46,457 bases of DNA. Source: a phage. The stretch lies in assembly GCA_026328835.1 (NCBI GenBank), contig GCA_026328835.1_4850.1. One strand, written 5' to 3'. Below are positions 2,431 to 46,137 of this stretch, one piece after another (position 1 is the stretch's first letter; each line of letters opens with the position of its first letter). The position numbers and the translations under genes are program-made. The notes under the pieces were generated by a model. The model was not told where the DNA came from, searched no databases, and was given only the letters and a program-made list of their open reading frames with translations.

Positions 2431-2732
2431 TATTTAATCTCTCCATTCAGTTCATTAACAATTAACGTTGCATAGCCAGCAATATCTTTCCAGCTGTCAT
2501 CATAAGTCGGGTCGCCATTCAGAATACGCCCAATCTTGTGCTGAATCATGTCGAGCGCCTCGCGCTGGCTTGGTGTCAGATTGTTCCACCCATCCACTTC
2601 GCGCATGACGGTTTTCAGTTCCTGCATGATTTCAGCGCCATCTTTGAATTTGCCGTATCGGCTACCGCGCGCGGTGATGAGTTGCTCTGTTGCGTCAGTA
2701 TGGCGCCTATCGCCCGTGATTTGTGAACTCAT
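2430..2732 (-). CDS. hypothetical protein
   Basis: 100-aa ORF; 1-nt overlap with downstream gene. Confidence 0.45.
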   Translation of the reverse strand: MSSQITGDRRHTDATEQLITARGSRYGKFKDGAEIMQELKTVMREVDGWNNLTPSQREALDMIQHKIGRILNGDPTYDDSWKDIAGYATLIVNELNGEIK

Positions 2733-3219
2733 TGTGATGTATTCTCCTGAATTCTTTTATTTTTGCTTCCGCTTCTCTTATGTCAGAAAAGTAACCAACT
2801 GTGAATCTTTTGCCATTTACTCCAACTCTTGCATGCCACTTGTTGTGCGATGAACTCCAGTTAACCCCCTTGATACCGCTAGTGTTGTTTTTGTTCATTG
2901 CTTTGTTGTGGCTATTCTCAAATTTGCTGGCCTCCCTTAAATTGCACGCCCTGTTGTCATTGCGAATTCCATTGATGTGATCAATCATTTCACTTGCTGA
3001 TGAGCCATGAATACATATCCATGCCAGTCTGTGAGCAAGAAAAGCCCTACCGCAAAGAATTATTTGCACATATCCATCTGGCTTTAAGTAGCCTGCAACG
3101 CTCCCTTTTTCTGCAATCCTATTCCTTGTCTTTAGCCATTTAAATTCCCCAGTTAGTGGATTGTAGTCAAGGTAACTCAATATAAACTCCCTACTCGGCT
3201 CCTCCCTCCTATGTCTCAT
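2707..3219 (-). CDS. HNH homing endonuclease with AP2-like DNA-binding domain
   Basis: HRLAW...DHINGIRNDNR..NLR HNH motif plus NTSGIKGVNW...W.A AP2-like segment. Confidence 0.8.
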   Translation of the reverse strand: MRHRREEPSREFILSYLDYNPLTGEFKWLKTRNRIAEKGSVAGYLKPDGYVQIILCGRAFLAHRLAWICIHGSSASEMIDHINGIRNDNRACNLREASKFENSHNKAMNKNNTSGIKGVNWSSSHNKWHARVGVNGKRFTVGYFSDIREAEAKIKEFRRIHHNEFTNHGR

Positions 3220-9938: not shown

Positions 9939-10478
9939 CTACAGACGCATCGGCATAACAACAATCTTCGCAGTCTCGCCAGATGGCGAATTAATACAGC
10001 AAACTGCGGCATTTGTGTTTCCATTTAGTTCAAACTTAACGCCACAGAATTTAGGATTAAACAGTTTTGCCACTTTCTCAATATTAACCAGATAGCCAGC
10101 ATTGAAGCCAATTTCCTCTGCTGCTTTCGTTTCCTTAGGTATCACGCGGTCAATGTCAGGGAATCGGCCGTCAATCTCTTCGCAGATACCAGCACCAACC
10201 ATTGTGTCCATATGACCGAAATGATAAGTAACGATTCCAGATTTTGTATCGATGATCGCATGGTTATATTTCTTTGTCGGAGACTTGCTTACCTTTACAA
10301 TCACATTTTCTGTCAGCTTATTGTCATGGCTTCCGCCAATAAACGCGCGATGACCGTCAGTTGATGCGATGCGACCATCTTGCATAAAGCAAATACCATT
10401 CAGGTAATACCGCACATCGTTGCGAGCCTGAAAGATTAATGCTGATTCAAGTAATAATTTGCTGATTTTTAGTTTCAT
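9939..10478 (-). CDS. truncated beta sliding clamp (DnaN)-like protein
   Basis: DVRYYLNG, TDGHR, DGRFPDIDRVIP and C-terminal VVMPMRL match E. coli DnaN domain II and the end of domain III as recalled; about 179 aa versus 366; start MKLKISK with RBS AAGGTGA. Confidence 0.7.
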   Translation of the reverse strand: MKLKISKLLLESALIFQARNDVRYYLNGICFMQDGRIASTDGHRAFIGGSHDNKLTENVIVKVSKSPTKKYNHAIIDTKSGIVTYHFGHMDTMVGAGICEEIDGRFPDIDRVIPKETKAAEEIGFNAGYLVNIEKVAKLFNPKFCGVKFELNGNTNAAVCCINSPSGETAKIVVMPMRL

Positions 10479-10675
10479 TACTTCACCTTTATCATGTGCT
10501 GTTTTGCAACCTTCAGGCATTCTTCAAAGATGCCACCCTTCTTTGCGCTCTGATTGCGCTTGTAATACTGAATCGCCGCATCAATTGCCATCTGGTCGAT
10601 ATCTGGCAGCTTGGCGCGAAGTTGTTTTTCGATGAATTGCTCAGCGTTCATTGTTCTCGCCTGCCATAAATCCAA
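10478..10675 (-). CDS. hypothetical protein
   Basis: 65-aa ORF; alternative internal start at 10651. Confidence 0.4.
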   Translation of the reverse strand: MDLWQARTMNAEQFIEKQLRAKLPDIDQMAIDAAIQYYKRNQSAKKGGIFEECLKVAKQHMIKVK

Positions 10676-10868
10676 TAAATTGCTTTGTGCACTTCAGGCA
10701 AAGCCACTTGCATTTCTGAATGTTAATCCCTCCGCAGTCCTGGCCAATACTCCCTCTGTATGCGACGGTAAGTTCTCCGCGCTCACCATCAATATACTCA
10801 TCAGGATTTTTAGTTTCATATCCGCATCTATCACACTTATGGATTGTTATGGTTATTTTCGCCATCAC
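10641..10868 (-). CDS. zinc-ribbon protein
   Basis: CDRCG...CLKC Cys pairs in 75 aa. Confidence 0.5.
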   Translation of the reverse strand: MMAKITITIHKCDRCGYETKNPDEYIDGERGELTVAYRGSIGQDCGGINIQKCKWLCLKCTKQFIGFMAGENNER

Positions 10869-11674
10869 ATCTTCTCCAGAATTGCCATGACCTCGTGAAT
10901 ATCAGCAACAGGAATCTGGATAAACTCCTCATCCTCAGCCACCACATGACCAGCAGGAAGAATTACATGATCTGCTGGCTTTAATAACTCAATCAGGCGG
11001 TCTACTGGCTTAATCTTTTTCGACTTCAGCACCTTTGCCGTGACCTTGTCCTTGCCTTGTGCTTTGGCCTCTTCGACTGCCTCGTCGATAACTTTAACCG
11101 CATCATCGCCATGTTCACGCGTTACTGCTACGGCATTTGCATAGCTGATTTGTCCTGCACTGATGCGCGCTTTTACTTCTGCTGGCACATCACCCAGCGA
11201 CAGGTGCATTTGCACGTCAGATACTGAGCGGCCTACCTTCTTGGCGATTTCTTCATTTGTCCAGCCAAATCCTTTCAATCGCGTGTAAGCCTTTGCACGC
11301 TCAAACGGGTCAAGCTGCTTGCCCTGACTGGATGACACCATGAAGGCGATTTTGTCCGCCTCGTCGCCAGTGAAATCCTTGCACTCAATGCGAACGATTG
11401 GTGCGCCGCGTTCAATGGCTCGTAGTGCACCAAGATAGCGATGCTGACCATCAAGAATGCGGATTCCTTTGTCGTCAGGGATAACTGTTAATGCTGGCAA
11501 TGGCTGACCTGATTCCCAGCACTGAGCGAAATATTCAACGTGTTGCTCATCTGCTTCACGGATGTTATATCCCGGCTCCAGATAGATTCGCTCCACTGGC
11601 ACGAGATAGGTTTTGTTAACAGCAATACCGTTGCGCGTTTCTTTGTCTGAATAGATTTTGCTTAGTGTTTTCAT
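10865..11674 (-). CDS. ParB-like (ParB/Srx N-terminal domain plus HTH) protein
   Basis: DGQHRYLGA GxxR-type motif followed by HTH-like EEIAKKVGRSVSDVQMHLSL. Confidence 0.65.
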   Translation of the reverse strand: MKTLSKIYSDKETRNGIAVNKTYLVPVERIYLEPGYNIREADEQHVEYFAQCWESGQPLPALTVIPDDKGIRILDGQHRYLGALRAIERGAPIVRIECKDFTGDEADKIAFMVSSSQGKQLDPFERAKAYTRLKGFGWTNEEIAKKVGRSVSDVQMHLSLGDVPAEVKARISAGQISYANAVAVTREHGDDAVKVIDEAVEEAKAQGKDKVTAKVLKSKKIKPVDRLIELLKPADHVILPAGHVVAEDEEFIQIPVADIHEVMAILEKM

Positions 11675-30711: not shown

Positions 30712-32617
30712 AATCTTTTCTGTGTATTATGTCACGGCCTTTATCGTTAATACGATGTGTGATGCGTTTTGGCGCTTTAATCAACCCCGCATACATCATG
30801 AACTGCTTGGCGTTCTGGCATTTCAGGATTTTCCCAGCTATTGATTTATCATCAAGGTGAGGGAAGATGGCCTTTGCCTTGAACATGTTTTTCATGTGGG
30901 TTGCTCCGCCGTAAGGGTAGAAAACCTCGTTAGCCCAGCCTTCTTTGCCATCACAACGATTAATCCAGTAGCGATATAAAATTCCCTCTCCATCCTTCGT
31001 CAACTGGACTTTGAAGTCAATAACATCAGCCCATTCGTTGTCGGTATACGCACGCTCATTCAGTGCCGCATTTGGGTCTCGCAAAACATGATCGCAATGT
31101 CGGCAATAGCGCGCCGTAGGGTCGTTTTTAGTTCCGCAACCATCATCAAAAATACGGATGCCATGCTTATCGAAGCCGCAACGGATGTAGCTGAAAAATT
31201 CTTCGCAGCGACCATCTGGAGATAGTGCATCTTTGCCAATACAGCGGCGAGCATATGGGCTGTTCATTGTTCCACATTTTGGACACGGAACCTGTTCGCC
31301 ACTGCGTTTTGAACGTTGCGCTTCAGCCTCTTCCAGAATAGGGTCTTCATACAGCTGACCAAGCTCAAACATCGTGCCTGAGAAATCCAGAACCAGATGG
31401 TCTTCTTTATGATACCCGGCATCAATTTGCTCTTTCTTCAGCAGGCGCATTCCGCGACCAAGCAACTGAACGAGAAGGGTGAGTGACATTATTTTTCGTA
31501 ATATGACGCTTACATCCCATAATGGGATATTAACGCCAGTTGTAAGCGCGGCGATCTGGAATGTGTATTTTATTTTGCCAGTGTACGCATCCCTCAGGGC
31601 TTTGCGTCTTGCTTTTTGCCCCATATCTTCAGTAACAATCGCGTAGCTGCCTTCAGGAAGGTATTTAGCAGCCTCCAAGCAATGCTTCTTGCCTGCGCAG
31701 GTAATTAATACCCCATTTCTGTCTTTTGTAAGCTCCATCACTTTGAGCATGATTTTCTGTGTAAGAGTTCCTTGTTCAAGTATTTCCTCCTGCATCTGCT
31801 TGAGCTGCTCTGCGGTGAAGTCCTGCGTCCCGTCAACATCTGAGCCATGGAAGTTATGCAGGTCGTATTGCAAGTCATCAACATCATGAAGACCAAAGAT
31901 TGTTGGAACAACAAATCCACGATCTACCATGTACTTTGTGTCAATGTTTATTATTTCATTTTTCCAGTACGCGCCTTTCATTGATTCAGTACCACGGAAT
32001 GGACTTCCGGTGAATCCAATTGTTATCATCTCATGACCATATTTTTCCTTGCATCGCCTGTTAAGCTCAGTAAGTATTACGCCATATTGTGTTGTTGGAT
32101 TCTCACTAATAATGTCCTGCCATGGCACTTGGTGCCCTTCATCACAAAGGCAAAATCTAGGGGTAAAGTCACTCAACCCACCTTTCTTAACGTCACCGTT
32201 TGATTCATCTTTTTTATCAAAAAGTGCGTTAACTATTGTTCCTTCAGTGCCGCATATAATAGGGTATGCTGTACTTTTCCTACCAAGAGATGCGCTATAA
32301 AGAGAGTTTTTTACACCACACTCCCACATCATTTCAGCATTCTGCTCAGCTATCTCGCCCTGCCTTGAGATTACAAGACCCTCCCACCCCATATCCTGAA
32401 ATCTACTGCAAAGCATTGAAATCATCACGGTCTTTCCTGATGAAACAGACGCTGTAACATAGCTTGGCTCTGGTTTCTTTCCAAAATTACGAATAACCTC
32501 AGCGCACTTTGCGTAAACAAGCCATTGGTAATCATATGGCTCTATGGAACCTAATTTTATTGATTTCTTTAATTTATCTATATCAATTTCTGAAATCATC
32601 TTGTCTATTTTATGCAT
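30683..32617 (-). CDS. superfamily 2 DNA helicase with C-terminal zinc ribbons
   Basis: Walker A SVSSGKT; DEGH box (LCDEGHQV); QLLGRGMR arginine finger; CPKCG and CRHC pairs. Confidence 0.85.
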   Translation of the reverse strand: MHKIDKMISEIDIDKLKKSIKLGSIEPYDYQWLVYAKCAEVIRNFGKKPEPSYVTASVSSGKTVMISMLCSRFQDMGWEGLVISRQGEIAEQNAEMMWECGVKNSLYSASLGRKSTAYPIICGTEGTIVNALFDKKDESNGDVKKGGLSDFTPRFCLCDEGHQVPWQDIISENPTTQYGVILTELNRRCKEKYGHEMITIGFTGSPFRGTESMKGAYWKNEIINIDTKYMVDRGFVVPTIFGLHDVDDLQYDLHNFHGSDVDGTQDFTAEQLKQMQEEILEQGTLTQKIMLKVMELTKDRNGVLITCAGKKHCLEAAKYLPEGSYAIVTEDMGQKARRKALRDAYTGKIKYTFQIAALTTGVNIPLWDVSVILRKIMSLTLLVQLLGRGMRLLKKEQIDAGYHKEDHLVLDFSGTMFELGQLYEDPILEEAEAQRSKRSGEQVPCPKCGTMNSPYARRCIGKDALSPDGRCEEFFSYIRCGFDKHGIRIFDDGCGTKNDPTARYCRHCDHVLRDPNAALNERAYTDNEWADVIDFKVQLTKDGEGILYRYWINRCDGKEGWANEVFYPYGGATHMKNMFKAKAIFPHLDDKSIAGKILKCQNAKQFMMYAGLIKAPKRITHRINDKGRDIIHRKDFAGEQSEAA

Positions 32618-33222
32618 TATTTTACCCTACCAAATTCACCATGAAGACTTGATGATGCTTTTGCATACGCTTTATGTGCATCCTCAGGGGTATTAAAATA
32701 ACCAATAACTTTCTTTTTACCTCTAACCCAAATCTGAGCAACCCACCGTTTCTCCCTTTTGAACCAACTAACACCTTTGTATCCGCTAGTGTTATTTGAT
32801 GATAAGCCTTTATTCCATTTGTTTTGACTGCAATCAGCCAACCTGAGATTTTCTATCCTGTTATCGTTCTTAATTGTATTGATGTGATCAATGTCCATAG
32901 CTCCAGGGTCTTGCTGTTTGCATATGGCCCATACAATTCTATGTGCTTTATAATAAACACCATCAATCATCACAAGCCTGTAATTCATTTTGTCAACCTT
33001 ATTGTCAGCAGGTTTCCCCGGATACCGTGAATTCCATGTTTTGTGATATGGCGTTAATTCATCTCTCCTTTTCCAATACAGGCGTCCATTGACAACCTCT
33101 AACCTTGATGTCACGTAATCAACATCAATTTTTAGCACCTTTCTTTTTTTCTCTAAAACTTTTGAGTCGGCACCCTGAGCAACAGAACTCAGCCCTTGCT
33201 GTTCCATAGAATTCCCCCCCAC
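32617..33222 (-). CDS. HNH homing endonuclease with AP2-like domain
   Basis: HRIVW...DHINTIKNDNRIENLR plus NTSGYKGVSW...W.A. Confidence 0.8.
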   Translation of the reverse strand: MGGNSMEQQGLSSVAQGADSKVLEKKRKVLKIDVDYVTSRLEVVNGRLYWKRRDELTPYHKTWNSRYPGKPADNKVDKMNYRLVMIDGVYYKAHRIVWAICKQQDPGAMDIDHINTIKNDNRIENLRLADCSQNKWNKGLSSNNTSGYKGVSWFKREKRWVAQIWVRGKKKVIGYFNTPEDAHKAYAKASSSLHGEFGRVK

Positions 33223-33360
33223 AGTTTTTGCACTTTTTCAGAGTGATAGCCATTTCTTATCCTCGATATTAAACTCAGTTGCGTTTCATGTCAATAACGC
33301 TTGTGCGTTTCATGCGAGTAAATTACAATGATTCTACATCAACGTCAACAGGAAGATTTT

Positions 33361-34314
33361 ATGAGATACGACTGGAAAGACATTGAGCCAAAAATGCTCG
33401 GCAACTGGCAGGCTGCCATCATGTCTATCGTCAATGTGGATAGCAGAGTTTTCAATGGCAAGCACCAGCCTTGCCCGTCATGCTCAGGCAAAGACAGGTA
33501 TCGCTTTGATGATAACTTCGAAACAAAAGGCGATGGTGGCGCAATCTGCAATCAGTGCGGTTCCGGCAGCGGCATGAACTGGCTGATGAAACTCTCCGGA
33601 ATGAGCTTTCCTGAAGCACTGGAGGCGCTTGGAGGATTCCTGAACATGAACCCACGTGAAAAGCTGGAGGCAATCAGGAAAGAGTTACCGAAGATAAATT
33701 ACAATGATGACTTCATCACCGAGCAGGAAGTCGCAGCAATCATGGCTAAAACGACGCGTGTCGCGATGAATGAGTGGACTTTGATAAATGGCATTGGTTG
33801 CGACGTTAGCGTCGTCAGAGGCAAATCTGGAGAGCTTGTTGCGGTTGAGTTGATGCGCGCAGACACAATGAAGCCGTGCAATGTGGCGTTCATTGGCATG
33901 GATGGTGATGCATTCAGAACATTTTATAAAGCAGGGTACAACAAGGACTCAGCCATCAACGGTAAACTCACGCGCGGCGCGATAAGCACAATCGGAGAAG
34001 ACAACGGAAAGTTCATTTATCTTGTTTCTGATTATGCCGACGCGTGGAAGTGCCATTACTTCACTGGCGCTCATGTCTGGTGCTGCTGGTCGCCGGAAAA
34101 CATATGGGAAGTGGTGCGATCTGTTAGTGATGAGACGAAAGCACGGTTACGCTGCATAGTTAATTATAAATTCGACGAACTATGCGCGGCAGAAAATGCA
34201 GGACTTCCGGTGATGCTGCCTGATGATGCTGACACTATCAGGATGGCGAAACGAATCAGAAGAAAGATTTATGACGCTGGCGAGCTTATAGAGAAAATGT
34301 CAGTCAGCAGATAA
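33361..34314 (+). CDS. DNA primase (zinc-ribbon N-terminus)
   Basis: CPSCSGKDRYRFDD...CNQCGSGSGMNWL zinc-binding motif; ATG 33361 with AGGAAG RBS preferred over track start 33328. Confidence 0.6.
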   Translation: MRYDWKDIEPKMLGNWQAAIMSIVNVDSRVFNGKHQPCPSCSGKDRYRFDDNFETKGDGGAICNQCGSGSGMNWLMKLSGMSFPEALEALGGFLNMNPREKLEAIRKELPKINYNDDFITEQEVAAIMAKTTRVAMNEWTLINGIGCDVSVVRGKSGELVAVELMRADTMKPCNVAFIGMDGDAFRTFYKAGYNKDSAINGKLTRGAISTIGEDNGKFIYLVSDYADAWKCHYFTGAHVWCCWSPENIWEVVRSVSDETKARLRCIVNYKFDELCAAENAGLPVMLPDDADTIRMAKRIRRKIYDAGELIEKMSVSR

Positions 34315-34317
34315 AAG

Positions 34318-34346
34318 AAACCCTCCAATCGGAGGGTTTTTGTTAT
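34318..34346. terminator. bidirectional rho-independent terminator
   Basis: aaccctcc-aatc-ggagggtt between convergent genes. Confidence 0.7.
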
Positions 34347-34759
34347 TCATTGAACTCTGGCGCTTCAGTCCAGAAGACCACATTTCGCAGCGACTTACCC
34401 GTGTGATTACACCAGTATATTCCTGAGTCATCATACTTAGCAGTAACCTTGACGCGATCAGCATCAATAATAATAACCTCCTGTCCATCTTTAGGGTCGA
34501 AAAGACGCGCATCTTTCCAGTTAACAATCTCATTAAGACTAAGAAGTACATAGCCGGGAAGATAATCGCCAACATCAGCTATGTGAACTATGGTTCGCTC
34601 CGTTCTTTCACCTGTGTAGTCTCCATTCCACTCCCAAAGAATAATCGTGTCTCCAACCTTAAAATCACGGTCATTCTTTCTTAACTCTGCTTTCTTGTGA
34701 CAGGTGACGACAGGCCAGAAGTGCTCAGGTAAGATTTTTAGTTCGTGTGTTTTGCTCAT
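34343..34759 (-). CDS. ASCH/PUA-like domain protein
   Basis: start MSKTHELKILPEHFWPV at 34759; K..E.R.ND..F.VGD pattern. Confidence 0.45.
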   Translation of the reverse strand: MSKTHELKILPEHFWPVVTCHKKAELRKNDRDFKVGDTIILWEWNGDYTGERTERTIVHIADVGDYLPGYVLLSLNEIVNWKDARLFDPKDGQEVIIIDADRVKVTAKYDDSGIYWCNHTGKSLRNVVFWTEAPEFNE

Positions 34760-34760
34760 T

Positions 34761-35015
34761 TCAATCCTCCAATATCCAAACCGAATTACCAATTCGACTA
34801 TTATTTAAATCCTTTGACACAAGGCCATCATTACAAAGAGAAATCAGAACCTTCCGTAACTTTGCTGCTGTCCATTCATCATCAGGAAATTCATTCACCA
34901 TCGATAGACGTAAACTCCACGTAGCCACGGAGAACTTGCGAAAAATTCCAAGCGACTCTTCATCAATGGATTTTCTCTTTCTCATCACGTATAAAACTTT
35001 ATCTTTCACATCCAT
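34761..35015 (-). CDS. hypothetical protein
   Basis: 84-aa ORF. Confidence 0.45.
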   Translation of the reverse strand: MDVKDKVLYVMRKRKSIDEESLGIFRKFSVATWSLRLSMVNEFPDDEWTAAKLRKVLISLCNDGLVSKDLNNSRIGNSVWILED

Positions 35016-35025
35016 TTTCTTGTCC

Positions 35026-35219
35026 TCACTTAATCATCAATTTTGAAATATCAACATAACCAACACAAAATCTGTGCCAGTAATCATCAAGCACGTGGTA
35101 ATTAGATCGAAACCATGCTTTGTTAATTCCACTCCAGAAAAACCACGTCGAATAACCATACGGTCTGAAATGCCATGAACCTTCTGAGCGGCAAAGTTCG
35201 CCTGATATTGTTCTCATTT
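35026..35219 (-). CDS. hypothetical small protein
   Basis: internal start MRTISGEL adjacent to upstream stop. Confidence 0.3.
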
Positions 35220-36842
35220 TAAGTTCCTCATAAATCTCATTCTCTTCATTGCTGATGACAGGATATTCCTGACTGATGAGTTCATCCGCAAACCAGACCA
35301 TGATCCGCCACCAGAAAGCCTGATATTGGATGGATTTTCGGGATCTAACTCTATTGGTGAATGCCTGTTTTCAGATATCGCAATGATGACCTCGTAAGTA
35401 AATTTATCCGGCGTAACCTGAATTGAGTTTGAATCGGCAGCTGAAATTATCTTACTGATTCTGTCGCGACAAAGTTTGTTTTTGACAACTGAAATATAAG
35501 GCTTTTCAGAGAAAGCCTTTGATTCGATGCATTTTTTAACCTTCATAACAATGTTGTCCCACTCAGTGTTTTCAAGGCCATCAAACTCTGCTTCTCCCTC
35601 AAGATAATCACGCAGGTCGTACATGCTGTTCATTACGGTTGCATACGCCCATTCAATATGGCATTCCTTTATCTGCGGAGTCATGCCATTGCGCGATGAT
35701 AAATCAGCAAATGCACAAAGAGTCGCAAGCTCAATAACCATCTGAGCAGAGCGAGGGCCGACGCTACCAATTACACCGGGAATGTTGCTTGACTTGTCTA
35801 TGCGCCTGCGCAACATCTCATAGTATTTAGAAACGCCATCATTTGCATATTCCACATTAAAGAATCCACCTGGAATTCTTGGTTTCCATTCGTTTATTAT
35901 TGTTTTATTGATTTCCATGTCAGGGGTATTCTTAAGTTCTGGCATGTGTTCATGACCTTTAATGAAAAGAGATCTCCCCATGCCGCCATCCTTTTCCCAT
36001 CTCCTTACTGTTGCAATCCCCTGCTCTGGGGTAACCGTTATGAACGGAATGAACCTTACGTTCTGTATTCCCTTCTCGTTAATGCACAGGTCATAACATT
36101 GCATGGCGTGATTTAATCTTCTTCCAATATCATGGTTCATTTTTGCAAGTCGTCGATAATCTATAGCGCCATCAGATTCACCGATGCGAGGTATCATCCA
36201 CCCCTGAGCCTGCGCAGCAGAGAGTATTAACTTCGGGTTTTGAGCACTAGCCAGCTTCTCCTGAAACAATGTAACGACAGGAGACTCAGGGAACCAGTCA
36301 CCACTAATCGATGTCCTGAACCATGAAGCCGTTTCACCAAGCGGTGAGCGCGTATCTGACCAAGACTGAAGATGTTCAGGGCAATCATCCGCGATATAAA
36401 GCAAGAAACCATCAGCCTCAATGAGTCGTTCTTTGATTTGTCGCAATGATGTTACGGTGCTTTTTGATACGCGCGGAGTGATTCCAAGATTCTCTGAGTA
36501 AGCCTTAACAAAATCAGATGGAGCACCCTTACCTGCGCCAGAGCGACCAACAATAAATGTCCCAGTGGCACACTTGTTTTTTGCGCTTGGTCCAATGATG
36601 TATCTGCCAGCCATCACCTGAGCAAGCGCGATAGCACCCGGCAATCTGTACACCTCTCCTTCTTCGCGATTTTCAAAATGATTCTCTATCTCGCACATGA
36701 ATTCACCAAGAGAACCGGGAGGAATTTTGTATCCTTCTCTGAATTCTGGCACGTCAATTTCATCAAGTGGATTTCCAGAATCAGGCTTACCTGTTGGCTT
36801 CAGAGATTCCTTTAGTTCAATGATTTGCTTTGAATCAGTCAT
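35214..36842 (-). CDS. large early protein of unknown function (Gly-rich loop GRSGAGKG; candidate replication-associated protein)
   Basis: 542-aa ORF; second gene of minus-strand operon leaving the repeat-rich region; Gly-rich loop lacks canonical GK[ST]. Confidence 0.55.
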   Translation of the reverse strand: MTDSKQIIELKESLKPTGKPDSGNPLDEIDVPEFREGYKIPPGSLGEFMCEIENHFENREEGEVYRLPGAIALAQVMAGRYIIGPSAKNKCATGTFIVGRSGAGKGAPSDFVKAYSENLGITPRVSKSTVTSLRQIKERLIEADGFLLYIADDCPEHLQSWSDTRSPLGETASWFRTSISGDWFPESPVVTLFQEKLASAQNPKLILSAAQAQGWMIPRIGESDGAIDYRRLAKMNHDIGRRLNHAMQCYDLCINEKGIQNVRFIPFITVTPEQGIATVRRWEKDGGMGRSLFIKGHEHMPELKNTPDMEINKTIINEWKPRIPGGFFNVEYANDGVSKYYEMLRRRIDKSSNIPGVIGSVGPRSAQMVIELATLCAFADLSSRNGMTPQIKECHIEWAYATVMNSMYDLRDYLEGEAEFDGLENTEWDNIVMKVKKCIESKAFSEKPYISVVKNKLCRDRISKIISAADSNSIQVTPDKFTYEVIIAISENRHSPIELDPENPSNIRLSGGGSWSGLRMNSSVRNILSSAMKRMRFMRNLK

Positions 36843-37120
36843 CAGAGGACTCTCCAGATATACATGAATTTTTTGCTTTCACTGGTTTTTGTTTTGATGA
36901 CCATGCCTTGTTCATTGGCTATTCTGGTGCAGTAAGACCTGAACATGTTGTGCGTCATGCGGTGCTTTTCATCGATCACTACAGAACAGCAATTTTCCTT
37001 TTCTCCTTTGATGATTTCGCTTGAGTATTCATTCTCGAAGTGAATACCAACCAGTTCGCCAGATTTCATTGAAGATAACAGCTCGTATGCAAACATTAAT
37101 TTAGTGCCATCTGGGTACAT
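36842..37120 (-). CDS. hypothetical protein
   Basis: 92 aa; RBS AAGGAGG at 37123-37129 (minus). Confidence 0.5.
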   Translation of the reverse strand: MYPDGTKLMFAYELLSSMKSGELVGIHFENEYSSEIIKGEKENCCSVVIDEKHRMTHNMFRSYCTRIANEQGMVIKTKTSESKKFMYIWRVL

Positions 37121-37145
37121 TCAGTCCTCCTTTTGTGATGTAAAA

Positions 37146-37174
37146 AATATACATGAATATTATGTACACGTCAA
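37146..37174 (-). promoter_or_regulatory. sigma70-like promoter for minus-strand early operon
   Basis: minus strand TTGACG (37174-37169), 17-nt spacer, TATATT (37151-37146). Confidence 0.5.
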
Positions 37175-37215
37175 CGACAGCAAGATAACGTTCTAGCTTA
37201 CACATCTTTACAGTA

Positions 37216-37600
37216 GTTACCGGAGTTACCGGGTTTTTACCGATCAGTTACCGATGCAAGTTACTGATAAATATAGAGTTACCGGAGTTACCGGATTTTT
37301 TGCATATGAGTCTATAAAATATCGAAAATGAGAATTTGTATCAAAATTGAATAAAATGCTTATAAATCATGTATATAATAAGAAATTAAACCCTTTTTAT
37401 ATATGTAAGGAGTTACCCGGTAAATCCGGTAACTATCCTGAGATCCTTGCTGTTCGCGGGTTTCAAGTTACCTGACGTCCGGTAACTCCGGTAACTTTTT
37501 AATGGCAAAACCGGCATAAAAACAACATAAGTAATTGATTTGTAACAGTTACCGGTTTTTATGTTCCGAGTTACCGGATTTTGCGTTACTTGGGTAACTT
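37216..37600. repeat. array of GTTACCGG / CCGGTAAC repeats flanking an AT-rich core
   Basis: at least 11 copies in both orientations, e.g. 37216, 37225, 37278, 37287, 37412, 37427, 37479, 37488, 37548, 37570; AT-rich 37300-37410. Confidence 0.75.
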
Positions 37601-37604
37601 GCTG

Positions 37605-37633
37605 TTGACGTAGAATCATCATTGATGTAGATT
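37605..37633 (+). promoter_or_regulatory. sigma70-like promoter for plus-strand early operon
   Basis: TTGACG, 17-nt spacer, TAGATT; 30 nt upstream of first early ORF. Confidence 0.45.
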
Positions 37634-37663
37634 GAACTCATCGAAACAAACGAGGGTGAAGAG

Positions 37664-37819
37664 ATGAAACCTACCAAATATGCAATAACTCTGTATTGCG
37701 AGGTAAAGGGTGATGCGCGCAAATTTATTGATGAGATGATCATGATTGGAAAGACCTTTGCGTATGCAGAAAAACAATATTACGCATGTAAAAAACTTTC
37801 ATATAACAGGTACGCATAA
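37664..37819 (+). CDS. hypothetical small protein
   Basis: hand-translated 51 aa; RBS GAGGGTGAAGAG. Confidence 0.35.
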   Translation: MKPTKYAITLYCEVKGDARKFIDEMIMIGKTFAYAEKQYYACKKLSYNRYA

Positions 37820-39924: not shown

Positions 39925-40368
39925 ATGGCTAATCCAAACCCTGTCATGAAATTTTCCTCTGAGTACCAGCCTGCTGGCAGAGGATTAAGCTACAGAAACA
40001 GGCTTATTGAAGCATTAAAGCGATGTGGGCTTGGCGAAGAGGAGTTTCTTGACGCATTCATCAGGACGTCAATCAGGATGACCGAGGAAAACCCGACTCA
40101 GGGTGTGCAGATGCTGAAGGAGATATTCCTGCGCATCAGTCCCGTGCAGAAAAGTATGGCGCCTCCGGTTAATTTTAAATACCGCAAAGATGCCACGCCG
40201 GTAGAGCAGATAGAGGATGTCATTCAATCTGTTTCCAGCGGTGAACTCCCAATTGACGTGGCGTCTCAGGTTGTGTCTATGATTAAGGTTGGTCTTGACG
40301 TGAAAGAGTTAACCGAACTCGCAGCGCGCCTTGAGCGACTGGAGAAATTACTGGAGCAGCAACAATAA
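39925..40368 (+). CDS. putative terminase small subunit
   Basis: 147 aa directly upstream of terminase large subunit (interrupted by HNH gene). Confidence 0.5.
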   Translation: MANPNPVMKFSSEYQPAGRGLSYRNRLIEALKRCGLGEEEFLDAFIRTSIRMTEENPTQGVQMLKEIFLRISPVQKSMAPPVNFKYRKDATPVEQIEDVIQSVSSGELPIDVASQVVSMIKVGLDVKELTELAARLERLEKLLEQQQ

Positions 40369-40374
40369 CTCATT

Positions 40375-40380
40375 TATAAT
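40375..40380 (+). promoter_or_regulatory. -10 hexamer TATAAT preceding HNH leader
   Basis: TATAAT 7 nt upstream of structured element. Confidence 0.35.
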
Positions 40381-40387
40381 AATCAAT

Positions 40388-40433
40388 GCGGCAAAGGGTA
40401 GCTCCCTGCCCGGATTGGTCTCCGGGCTGCCGC
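40388..40433 (+). ncRNA. conserved structured 5' leader element (copy A)
   Basis: outer stem gcggca/tgccgc enclosing hairpins aggg-tagct-ccct and gcccgga-ttggtc-tccgggc; near-identical copy at 45501-45546. Confidence 0.5.
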
Positions 40434-40471
40434 ATCCAACCAATAGACCGCCTGTAACCGAGGATTCAATC

Positions 40472-40990
40472 ATGTCATCATTAAAAGAGTTGCCACTCAC
40501 TCAAGAAAGACTTAAACATCTCCTGCATTACAATCCAGACACCGGTGTTTTCACGTGGTTAAGTAAGCCAAGCAGAAGAATAAATTCTGGAAGCATTGCT
40601 GGCAGGATAAAACCTAAGAAGGGGTATGTGGAAATAGGAATAAGTGGAAGGATCTATCTTGCTCATAGGCTGGCATGGCTTTACATCTATGGAACTTGGC
40701 CTAAAGAACAAGTTGACCACATTAATGGCATTCGTAACGATAACAGGATTAAGAATTTAAGGCTGGCCACAACATCACAGAATCAGTGGAACAAGAAGAT
40801 GCAAAAAAACAACACATCTGGAATTAAGGGGGTTAGCTGGGATAATCAACGGGGAAAATGGATAGCCCAATGCTGGTTATTTGGCAAGTATCACAAAATA
40901 GGTAGGTTTTCATCAATTGATGATGCTGAACGTGCAATAAGACAGTTCAGGGAGAAACATCAGGGGGAATTTTGCAATCATGGCGCGTAA
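40472..40990 (+). CDS. HNH homing endonuclease with AP2-like domain
   Basis: start MSSLKEL at 40472; HRLAW...DHINGIRNDNRIKNLR; NTSGIKGVSW. Confidence 0.8.
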   Translation: MSSLKELPLTQERLKHLLHYNPDTGVFTWLSKPSRRINSGSIAGRIKPKKGYVEIGISGRIYLAHRLAWLYIYGTWPKEQVDHINGIRNDNRIKNLRLATTSQNQWNKKMQKNNTSGIKGVSWDNQRGKWIAQCWLFGKYHKIGRFSSIDDAERAIRQFREKHQGEFCNHGA

Positions 40991-45494: not shown

Positions 45495-45500
45495 TTACTT

Positions 45501-45546
45501 GCAGCAAAGGGTAGCTCCCTGCCCGGATTGGTCTCCGGGCTGCTGC
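45501..45546 (+). ncRNA. conserved structured 5' leader element (copy B)
   Basis: identical inner hairpins to copy A; outer stem gcagca/tgctgc carries compensatory change. Confidence 0.5.
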
Positions 45547-45585
45547 ATCCAATCAATAGACCATCCTTATGACCGAGGACTCAAA

Positions 45586-46137
45586 ATGAAATCAATAAAC
45601 CGCAACAAAATGCCTGCAATGGCTCGCCTTTCACATCTATTCATTATTTCCAATGATGGAACAATCAAGCGCAGAATTGCTGCTGGCAATAGAGCGGCAG
45701 GCAGCAGCGCAGAAAGGAGTTTGTGTGGAAGTGACTATACATGCATAACTGTTGATGGCGTAAGATACCTAACCCATAGGGTTATTTGGTTCTTCTTTAC
45801 TGGTGAAGAGCCTGATTATCTTGATCACATAAATAGAAACAAAAAGGACAACAGACTATGCAATTTGAGGCCAGTATCCGCCACAGGAAACAGAAGTAAC
45901 ACTGATTTGATGAACAACAACACAACTGGATATATTGGTGTTTATTGGTATTACTACAAAGGAACTCCTAGATGGAGAGCTGCTTGCAACGATAAACATC
46001 TTGGGTATTACAGTTCGCTTGTCTCGGCAGTAAAGGCATATAATCGTTATGTGACAAGTATTTATGGTGATGAGGCATTAGCAAAGGTTGAGCATAACAA
46101 GAGGATGATCAAAGAATCTTTTGGTATTGAACTGTAG
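45586..46137 (+). CDS. HNH homing endonuclease with AP2-like domain
   Basis: start MKSINRNK at 45586; HRVIW...DHINRNKKDNRLCNLR; NTTGYIGVYW. Confidence 0.75.
   Translation: MKSINRNKMPAMARLSHLFIISNDGTIKRRIAAGNRAAGSSAERSLCGSDYTCITVDGVRYLTHRVIWFFFTGEEPDYLDHINRNKKDNRLCNLRPVSATGNRSNTDLMNNNTTGYIGVYWYYYKGTPRWRAACNDKHLGYYSSLVSAVKAYNRYVTSIYGDEALAKVEHNKRMIKESFGIEL

Follow-up and report, generated by a model that had tools for sequence, protein, structure and literature searches.

Which function is served by the short repeats that crowd the gap between two divergent operons of this siphophage? In the window, i.e. the whole analysed stretch of 46,457 bp, the gap at 37121-37663 extends exactly from the 92-aa gene that starts at 37120 on the minus strand to the first rightward gene at 37664, and the sequence-only reading had taken it for either an iteron-type replication origin or a multi-site operator. 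Over the region of interest the genome is 96% identical to that of Escherichia phage vB_EcoS_swi2 (Swiduovirus). Most window proteins share 85-99% identity with Escherichia phage C1 (Deseoctovirus), and the wider kin comprise Jersey-, Kaguna- and Macdonaldcampvirus-like phages of Salmonella, E. coli, Shigella and Klebsiella. Searches of the gap for Rfam families and tRNAs were empty, so that a structured RNA or a tRNA was ruled out. The literature searched contains no description of an origin or of iterons for Guernseyvirinae, Jerseyvirus, swi2 or Vi II-E1; in the GenBank record of Vi II-E1, two 25-bp repeats are annotated without a function. The cumulative GC skew reaches its minimum at 36-37 kb, but this is confounded as an origin signal because gene orientation switches at the same place. 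The features discussed below are compiled in Table 1.

Table 1. Positions of the repeat array, its promoters and the associated genes in the window
Feature	Position	Strand	Remarks
Leftward sigma70-type promoter	37146-37174	-	TTGACG (37174-37169)-17-TATATT; 10/12 consensus matches
Left iteron arm	37215-37294	+	doublets AGTTACCGGAGTTACCGG at 37215-37232 and 37277-37294; degenerate single sites at 37246 and 37259
AT-rich core, presumed DNA-unwinding element	37295-37410		lowest GC; contains the dyad centre, 37355.5
Inner right iteron arm	37411-37496	-	doublets CCGGTAAATCCGGTAACT (37417-37434) and CCGGTAACTCCGGTAACT (37479-37496)
Outer right sites	37547-37598	+	AGTTACCGG at 37547 and 37569; degenerate palindrome GTTACttggGTAAC at 37585-37598
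Rightward sigma70-type promoter	37605-37633	+	TTGACG (37605-37610)-17-TAGATT
92-aa protein, first gene of the leftward operon, in the cassette	36842-37120	-	possible cofactor or alternative iteron reader
542-aa MCM-like AAA+ helicase (predicted), C-terminal winged helix	35214-36842	-	candidate initiator and iteron reader
DnaG/T7-type primase, Zn ribbon and Toprim, without helicase domain	33328-34314	+	outside the cassette, 0.9 kb from the helicase

Count and spacing analysis of the repeats showed that GTTACCGG has nine exact matches in the window, all of them inside 37216-37577, against a chance expectation of 0.48 for the whole window; none of 100 shuffles reached nine. Allowing one mismatch added four in-region copies (37247, 37412, 37417 on the minus strand, and 37467), and the resulting 13 bear out the earlier count of at least 11. 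The repeat unit is the 9-mer AGTTACCGG, whose nine exact window copies likewise all lie in the region, within a span of 363 bp; at up to one mismatch, 13 of its 18 window matches were located in 37215-37577, compared with 4.07 expected window-wide. The array contains 13-15 sites in total. As the sequence-only reading had also stated, the repeats occur in both orientations and are clustered on either side of an AT-rich stretch: the left arm is made up of plus-strand sites only (37215, 37224, 37246, 37259, 37277, 37286), while the inner right arm consists mainly of minus-strand sites (37417, 37426, 37479, 37488), with a plus-strand half-site before each doublet (37411, 37466). Four 18-bp doublets follow one another with start-to-start spacings of 62, 140 and 62 bp. 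Those at 37215 and 37277 on the plus strand mirror those at 37417 and 37479 on the minus strand, and with this spacing both doublet pairs have one and the same symmetry centre. The right-arm doublets correspond to the reverse complement of the left doublet at 100% (pair I6) and 94% (pair I7). The outer right sites, which are oriented likewise in the A-type relatives introduced below, could represent a third binding cluster or a promoter-control device. We also observed a 9-mer, CTTGCTGTT, that is present twice, at 37446-37454 in the right arm and at 37598-37606 directly before the -35 hexamer at the cassette junction; this duplication may be a recombination scar.

The stretch between the arms is AT-rich (16% GC over the 80 nt of 37311-37390). 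Positions 37304-37403 form the least stable 100-nt duplex of the window, with -104.9 kcal/mol versus a mean of -137.6 kcal/mol and a standard deviation of 7.1, and hence deviate from the window mean by about 4.6 standard deviations. The divergent TTGACG-type promoters that had been placed at the edges were recovered as well, each with consensus matches at a spacing of 17 (Table 1). The leftward promoter presumably drives an operon of the 92-aa and helicase genes, the ribosome-binding site of which (GGAGGA) is found at 37126-37131 on the minus strand. The rightward promoter together with its leader (37599-37663) is 90-98% identical in more than 150 phage records from several genera. All -35 and -10 hexamers are free of repeats; the distance from the nearest upstream site is 40 bp for the leftward -35 and, measured from the end of the palindrome, 6 bp for the rightward -35.

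The earlier claim that the first operon leaving the gap encodes a large unknown protein stood in part: the 542-aa gene does belong to the leftward operon, but as its second gene, behind the 92-aa ORF. Database records call its product a hypothetical protein. We predict a hexameric-type AAA+ helicase with a winged-helix DNA-binding domain. The protein exhibits a Walker A (GRSGAGKG) and a Walker B motif (LLYIADD), and K105 and D153 are invariant among its homologs. It yielded no Pfam (E <= 0.1), NCBIfam or PDB sequence match, and specifically no significant match to the DUF3987 HMM (PF13148) and none to MCM (PF00493); the family was therefore assigned from PHROGs, HMMER profiles and structure prediction. 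It matches PHROG 3022 (DNA primase) at positions 341-711 of that family, a segment located behind the primase domain where the two are fused. With full HMMER profiles, 88 representatives were retrieved, the remote matches being Prim-Pol, PriCT or NrS-1-HBD fusions with DUF3987. The structure model (pLDDT 77, built on a 10-sequence alignment) is of medium confidence. Its AAA+ core is structurally nearest to MCM proteins, pointing to an ATPase fold that would be MCM-like as in archaeal and eukaryotic MCM, and the model aligns over its full length with viral models of phage DUF3987 proteins; comparison with a 495-aa "replicative DNA helicase" of Salmonella phage LPSTLL gave TM scores of 0.71/0.77. 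No N-terminal OB or Zn domain was identified, the first 90 residues being modelled as helical. Kazlauskas et al. (2016, PMC4889955) describe DUF3987 proteins as SF6 members distantly related to MCM and predicted to act as replicative helicases; they carry a wHTH at the C-terminus, and their genes adjoin a primase gene or are fused to one. By profile search and structure the 542-aa protein reaches DUF3987/Prim-Pol fusions, but it constitutes a separate family without a Pfam match, which is small, with 11 proteins in a word-index search of 5.8 billion proteins. A cognate origin of phage DUF3987 helicases was not described in the literature searched.

The primase encoded nearby matches Pfam Zn_Ribbon_Prim (E 4e-12) and PHROG 510 DNA primase (E 3e-81) and is likely the partner of the helicase. 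A non-exhaustive search of the window found no convincing phage DNA polymerase gene, and replication probably relies on host Pol III; relatives have the counterpart of a 193-aa ORF (9939-10520) annotated as DNA polymerase or Pol III beta, a label without Pfam support. Several further genes of the window deserve mention. The segment between the primase and helicase genes is itself variable, and a 149-aa ASCH/DUF3850 ("RNA-binding") ORF within it (34343-34792, minus strand) is absent from C1 and from the Klebsiella phage KpnS_VR6602. HNH homing-endonuclease ORFs at 40331-40990 (plus), 32617-33222 (minus), 2707-3219 (minus) and 45499-46137 (plus) are absent from C1, and the first of them is inserted between the TerS-position and large terminase genes, where it replaces the last ~21 residues of the TerS-position protein. 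Moreover, this seemingly virulent phage encodes a 269-aa ParB-HTH/KorB protein (10865-11674, minus strand), which is 99% identical in C1.

Related phages were surveyed in IMG/VR loci retrieved via the primase, as a scan for the conserved promoter pattern had returned nine loci only. Most primases were 81-96% identical to that of the window, three were 65% identical, and this conservation extended across loci with different cassettes. The large minus-strand ORFs beside the primase fell into seven clusters, and for each cluster the adjacent gap contained its own enriched motif flanking an AT-rich core: AGTTACCGG for A1, the type of the window, TTTACCGG for A2, GAGTTCCCG for A3, GCCCCACGA for B1, AGGGCGAA for B2, AAGGGCATA for B3, and CGGGATAA / GGATAAA for C, where the consensus of the B and C types was derived from k-mer counts and not from curated alignments. 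The syntenic gap of the relatives kept the same layout, i.e. repeats, AT-rich core, repeats and then the conserved rightward promoter, with a different motif. For instance, the repeats read TTTACCGG in Bas80 and AGTTCCCG in KpnS_VR6602, C1 and Vi II-E1 carry CCCCACG(A), two relatives from metagenomes have G/TTTACCGG, while KLB16 combines TTTACTA repeats with a helicase homolog that is 33% identical. C1 and Vi II-E1 belong to different genera and have their motif in common, and their B1 helicases are 99% identical. The B1 helicase of C1 matches DUF3987 with an E value of 1e-34 and shows no BLASTP similarity to the 542-aa protein.

Relative to the window, C1 has its helicase, 92-aa gene and repeats replaced, the non-homology extending from 35222 to 37599. 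In blastn comparisons with the type representatives, homology stopped either at 35222, the 3' end of the helicase gene (B1 types), or at ~34350 after the primase (others), and it resumed at 37599-37605, i.e. at the rightward -35, in every comparison with a downstream match. According to these breakpoints, the exchangeable unit comprises the helicase, the small ORF, the leftward promoter, the repeats and the AT-rich core. Related phages thus appear to swap origin and helicase together as one cassette. The covariation of helicase and motif is not phylogenetically corrected, but shared ancestry is an unlikely cause since the flanking genes are near-identical. Furthermore, the repeats are under purifying selection: when four distinct origins of the A1 type, 89-96% identical to one another, were compared, variation affected 5 of 114 positions in repeats versus 63 of 288 elsewhere (Fisher p = 6e-6), and only one variable position fell in the doublets. 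All A-type origins carry plus-strand sites left of the core and minus-strand sites right of it, and this opposed-arm layout was found in seven A-type relatives. Two observations concern the sequence between and beside the iterons. The AT-rich cores of the B1 origins of C1 (L003, 3240-3370) and Vi II-E1 (L004, 3235-3365) are nearly identical over ~130 bp, so that the core and not the iterons alone is conserved within a cassette type. In A2-like origins (L002, 3720-3740; L036, 9718-9735; right arms of L007 and L008), CTCCTCYGCARGCCGC directly follows the inner right doublet, where the window sequence is unrelated. A search of 5,426 complete E. coli genomes and of PLSDB plasmids gave no match to the cassette, and satellites, prophages or plasmids with the same origin were accordingly dismissed for these collections; 18-mer matches in species-representative genomes came from unrelated taxa and were uninformative.

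Taken together, we favour the view that 37215-37598 represents an iteron-type replication origin whose AGTTACCGG sites are bound by the self-loading 542-aa MCM-like helicase, the protein already put forward as binder by the sequence-only reading, and we put the probability of this reading at about 0.72. Between the two functions considered at the outset, the origin is preferred because the neighbouring gene encodes a predicted MCM-like AAA+ helicase with a C-terminal winged helix, because helicase type and repeat motif change together in relatives, because the two repeat arms, inverted relative to each other and exactly dyad-symmetric, enclose the window's least stable duplex, and because the promoter cores are free of repeats. 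The comparative evidence is the strongest of these lines. It is our inference that the repeats are recognised by the helicase and not by the 92-aa protein, that the helicase loads itself, and that replication starts at the array. Regarding the region of contact, the predicted recognition helix of the winged-helix domain is not obviously basic. Alignment of the helicase motif classes revealed a few differences in the C-terminal domain (e.g., KNKLCRD, KSGLCRG, KNRVYNG), and as few sequences were available these class-specific differences are only suggestive. The basic terminal helix GSWSGLRMNSSVRNILSSAMKRMRFMRNLK (35214-35303, the last 30 aa) is strongly conserved in A1, A2 and A3 helicases despite their different iterons; it probably contacts a partner protein or DNA in a non-specific manner.

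Other explanations assign the repeats to a different protein or to a different function. The locus could be an origin at which the 92-aa protein is the true repeat reader and recruits or loads an MCM-like helicase that is itself non-specific for DNA. In most A-type phages the 92-aa gene belongs to the same cassette as the helicase gene, and the fold of its product is not diagnostic; we regard this variant as unlikely. Unlikely as well, in our estimate, is that the array is no origin at all and acts as a multi-site operator or enhancer of the divergent early promoters, bound by the helicase as an autoregulator or by the 92-aa protein. Strong divergent promoters do bound the array, and the outer right sites with the palindrome end close to the rightward -35. 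Initiators of iteron plasmids, moreover, commonly autoregulate via inverted half-iterons. However, no repeat lies on a promoter hexamer, the nearest site on the left being well upstream of the -35, and an operator would not explain why the array is exactly symmetric about the least stable duplex, nor why the linked protein is a helicase of replicative type. C1 differs in its motif and yet encodes all other candidate regulators with 86-99% identity; on this ground a 209-aa protein annotated as wHTH and the small early proteins of the rightward operon (86-98% identical) were rejected as readers. In addition to its proposed function as an origin, the array may nevertheless have an operator role.

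The same reasoning, that a protein near-identical in phages with different motifs is excluded as their reader, applies to the TerS-position and ParB-like proteins. A pac site bound by the small terminase subunit had to be considered, since an array on both sides of a central region recalls the P1 pac site with its repeated hexamers around the cleavage region. The terminase genes, moreover, are found ~2.3-3.3 kb downstream, and numerous database entries for relatives begin close to this place. Residues 1-126 of the TerS-position protein (39925-40368), however, are 99-100% identical across four cassette types (B1, B3, C and A2), and it therefore cannot read cassette-specific motifs. This comparison involved Vi II-E1 and IME207 (CCCCACG), SB28 (AAGGGCATA type), VSt472 (GGATAAA type) and ASO78B; the last was assigned by its A2-type helicase (about 52% identical), the motif being directly observed for the other three types only. 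As the repeats are also exchanged with the helicase and not with the terminase, we ruled out a pac site and give it next to no credence. A role in nucleoid organisation or partition, with the sites bound by a host factor or by the ParB-like protein, is very improbable as well. The window does encode the ParB-HTH/KorB-domain protein mentioned above, but it is near-identical in C1, whose repeats are CCCCACG, and was rejected as the reader. A host factor is unlikely because E. coli phages, sharing the same host, carry different motifs, and the cassette is unmatched in E. coli genomes and plasmids.

The preferred reading, an origin read by its own helicase, places the array next to a known arrangement. 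In SaPIs, Rep is both initiator and hexameric AAA+ helicase, and its C-terminal winged-helix domain reads iterons of 5-6 nt; the ori contains six to twelve iterons, of which two or more lie to either side of a central AT-rich region and point in opposite directions, and two Rep hexamers are thought to self-load, one on each side of this region (PMC9371898). The rep gene adjoins its ori, and related elements have different specificities (PMC9371898). Rep2 of SaPIbov1, one of three Rep prototypes, is SF6/MCM-like. The sites of the window are arranged as in SaPI Rep-ori (SaPIbov1/SaPI2) and likewise adjoin a predicted MCM-like winged-helix helicase, although no SaPI Rep was among the PDB matches of the 542-aa protein. 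Unlike the SaPI iterons, which lie directly downstream of rep, those of the window are 9 bp long, mostly form 18-bp doublets and are situated upstream of the helicase operon. SaPIs are satellites, whereas the window derives from a 46-kb enterobacterial siphophage with the array between divergent promoters and a separately encoded primase of the DnaG/T7 type.

Because the layout matches SaPI Rep-ori, we propose a corresponding course of initiation. The AGTTACCGG sites would be bound by the 542-aa helicase, probably via its C-terminal winged-helix domain, with winged-helix domains seated on the 18-bp doublets. As the two arms run in opposite directions, a helicase ring would be placed on each flank of the core, the two rings being assembled in opposite orientation and about 140 bp apart across it. 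The AT-rich core would melt and each ring would load itself by encircling single-stranded DNA, the separate DnaG-type primase would then prime synthesis, and replication would proceed bidirectionally with the host polymerase. At the outer right sites beside the rightward promoter, the initiator may modulate early transcription, which is a speculative addition.

Further replicons share individual elements of this scheme. The P4 alpha protein is an SF3 initiator-primase-helicase whose C-terminal winged-helix domain binds the octamer TGTTCACC, repeated in multiple copies and both orientations, and it needs two separated repeat clusters, ori and crr. In contrast, the window combines an MCM-like fold with a separate primase and a single dyad-symmetric array. 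Lambda O/ori-lambda and the iteron plasmids (RepE, pi, RepA) likewise have iterons beside an AT-rich unwinding element, and their initiators and origins are matched in specificity and are exchanged as pairs between related replicons. Lambda O and the iteron-plasmid initiators, however, are not helicases but recruit host DnaB, and the lambda ori sits inside the O gene, whereas the array of the window is intergenic. Opposed short repeats, two rings and AT-rich melting are also known from SV40 large T antigen, papillomavirus E1 and MCM double hexamers, although T antigen and E1 are SF3 helicases and MCM is loaded by ORC/Cdc6, the helicase itself not being sequence-reading. By analogy, the array would thus be of a known kind, an iteron origin with a self-loading winged-helix AAA+ initiator-helicase, to which SaPI Rep-ori and P4 alpha-ori belong. 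Distinct features are the 9-bp unit in doublets, the exact dyad geometry, the site upstream of the helicase operon, the separate DnaG-type primase and a helicase family absent from Pfam. The most noteworthy by-product is that at least seven specificities of helicase and origin are exchanged as modules, with a promoter as the constant junction.

A broader generalization would be that Swiduovirus, Jersey-, Kaguna- and Deseoctovirus-like siphophages use sequence-specific, dyad-symmetric loading pads for MCM-like helicases as freely exchangeable cassettes of "replicon type", and that the iterons might gate the rightward promoter; we consider this far-reaching proposal rather unlikely in its entirety. 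At least seven specificities were seen in this analysis, with recombination ending sharply at the -35 of an early promoter that is conserved throughout. Co-infecting phages in competition with one another might drive the swaps, as might satellites or defence systems directed against the initiator. If the iterons gated the rightward promoter, helicase accumulation would be coupled to the early transcription programme. The proposal would also provide a tractable E. coli model of a sequence-reading MCM-type helicase that forms two opposed rings on duplex DNA.

The origin reading itself would extend the SaPI Rep-ori principle, which is not new, to full-size phages of Gram-negative bacteria. It would offer natural orthogonal helicase-origin pairs of about 2.4 kb for phage engineering and for studies of MCM-like self-loading in E. 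coli. Siphophages of this large group, which infect Salmonella, E. coli and Klebsiella and are used in therapy, would gain a testable model of replication, and a mosaic hot spot in their genomes would be explained.
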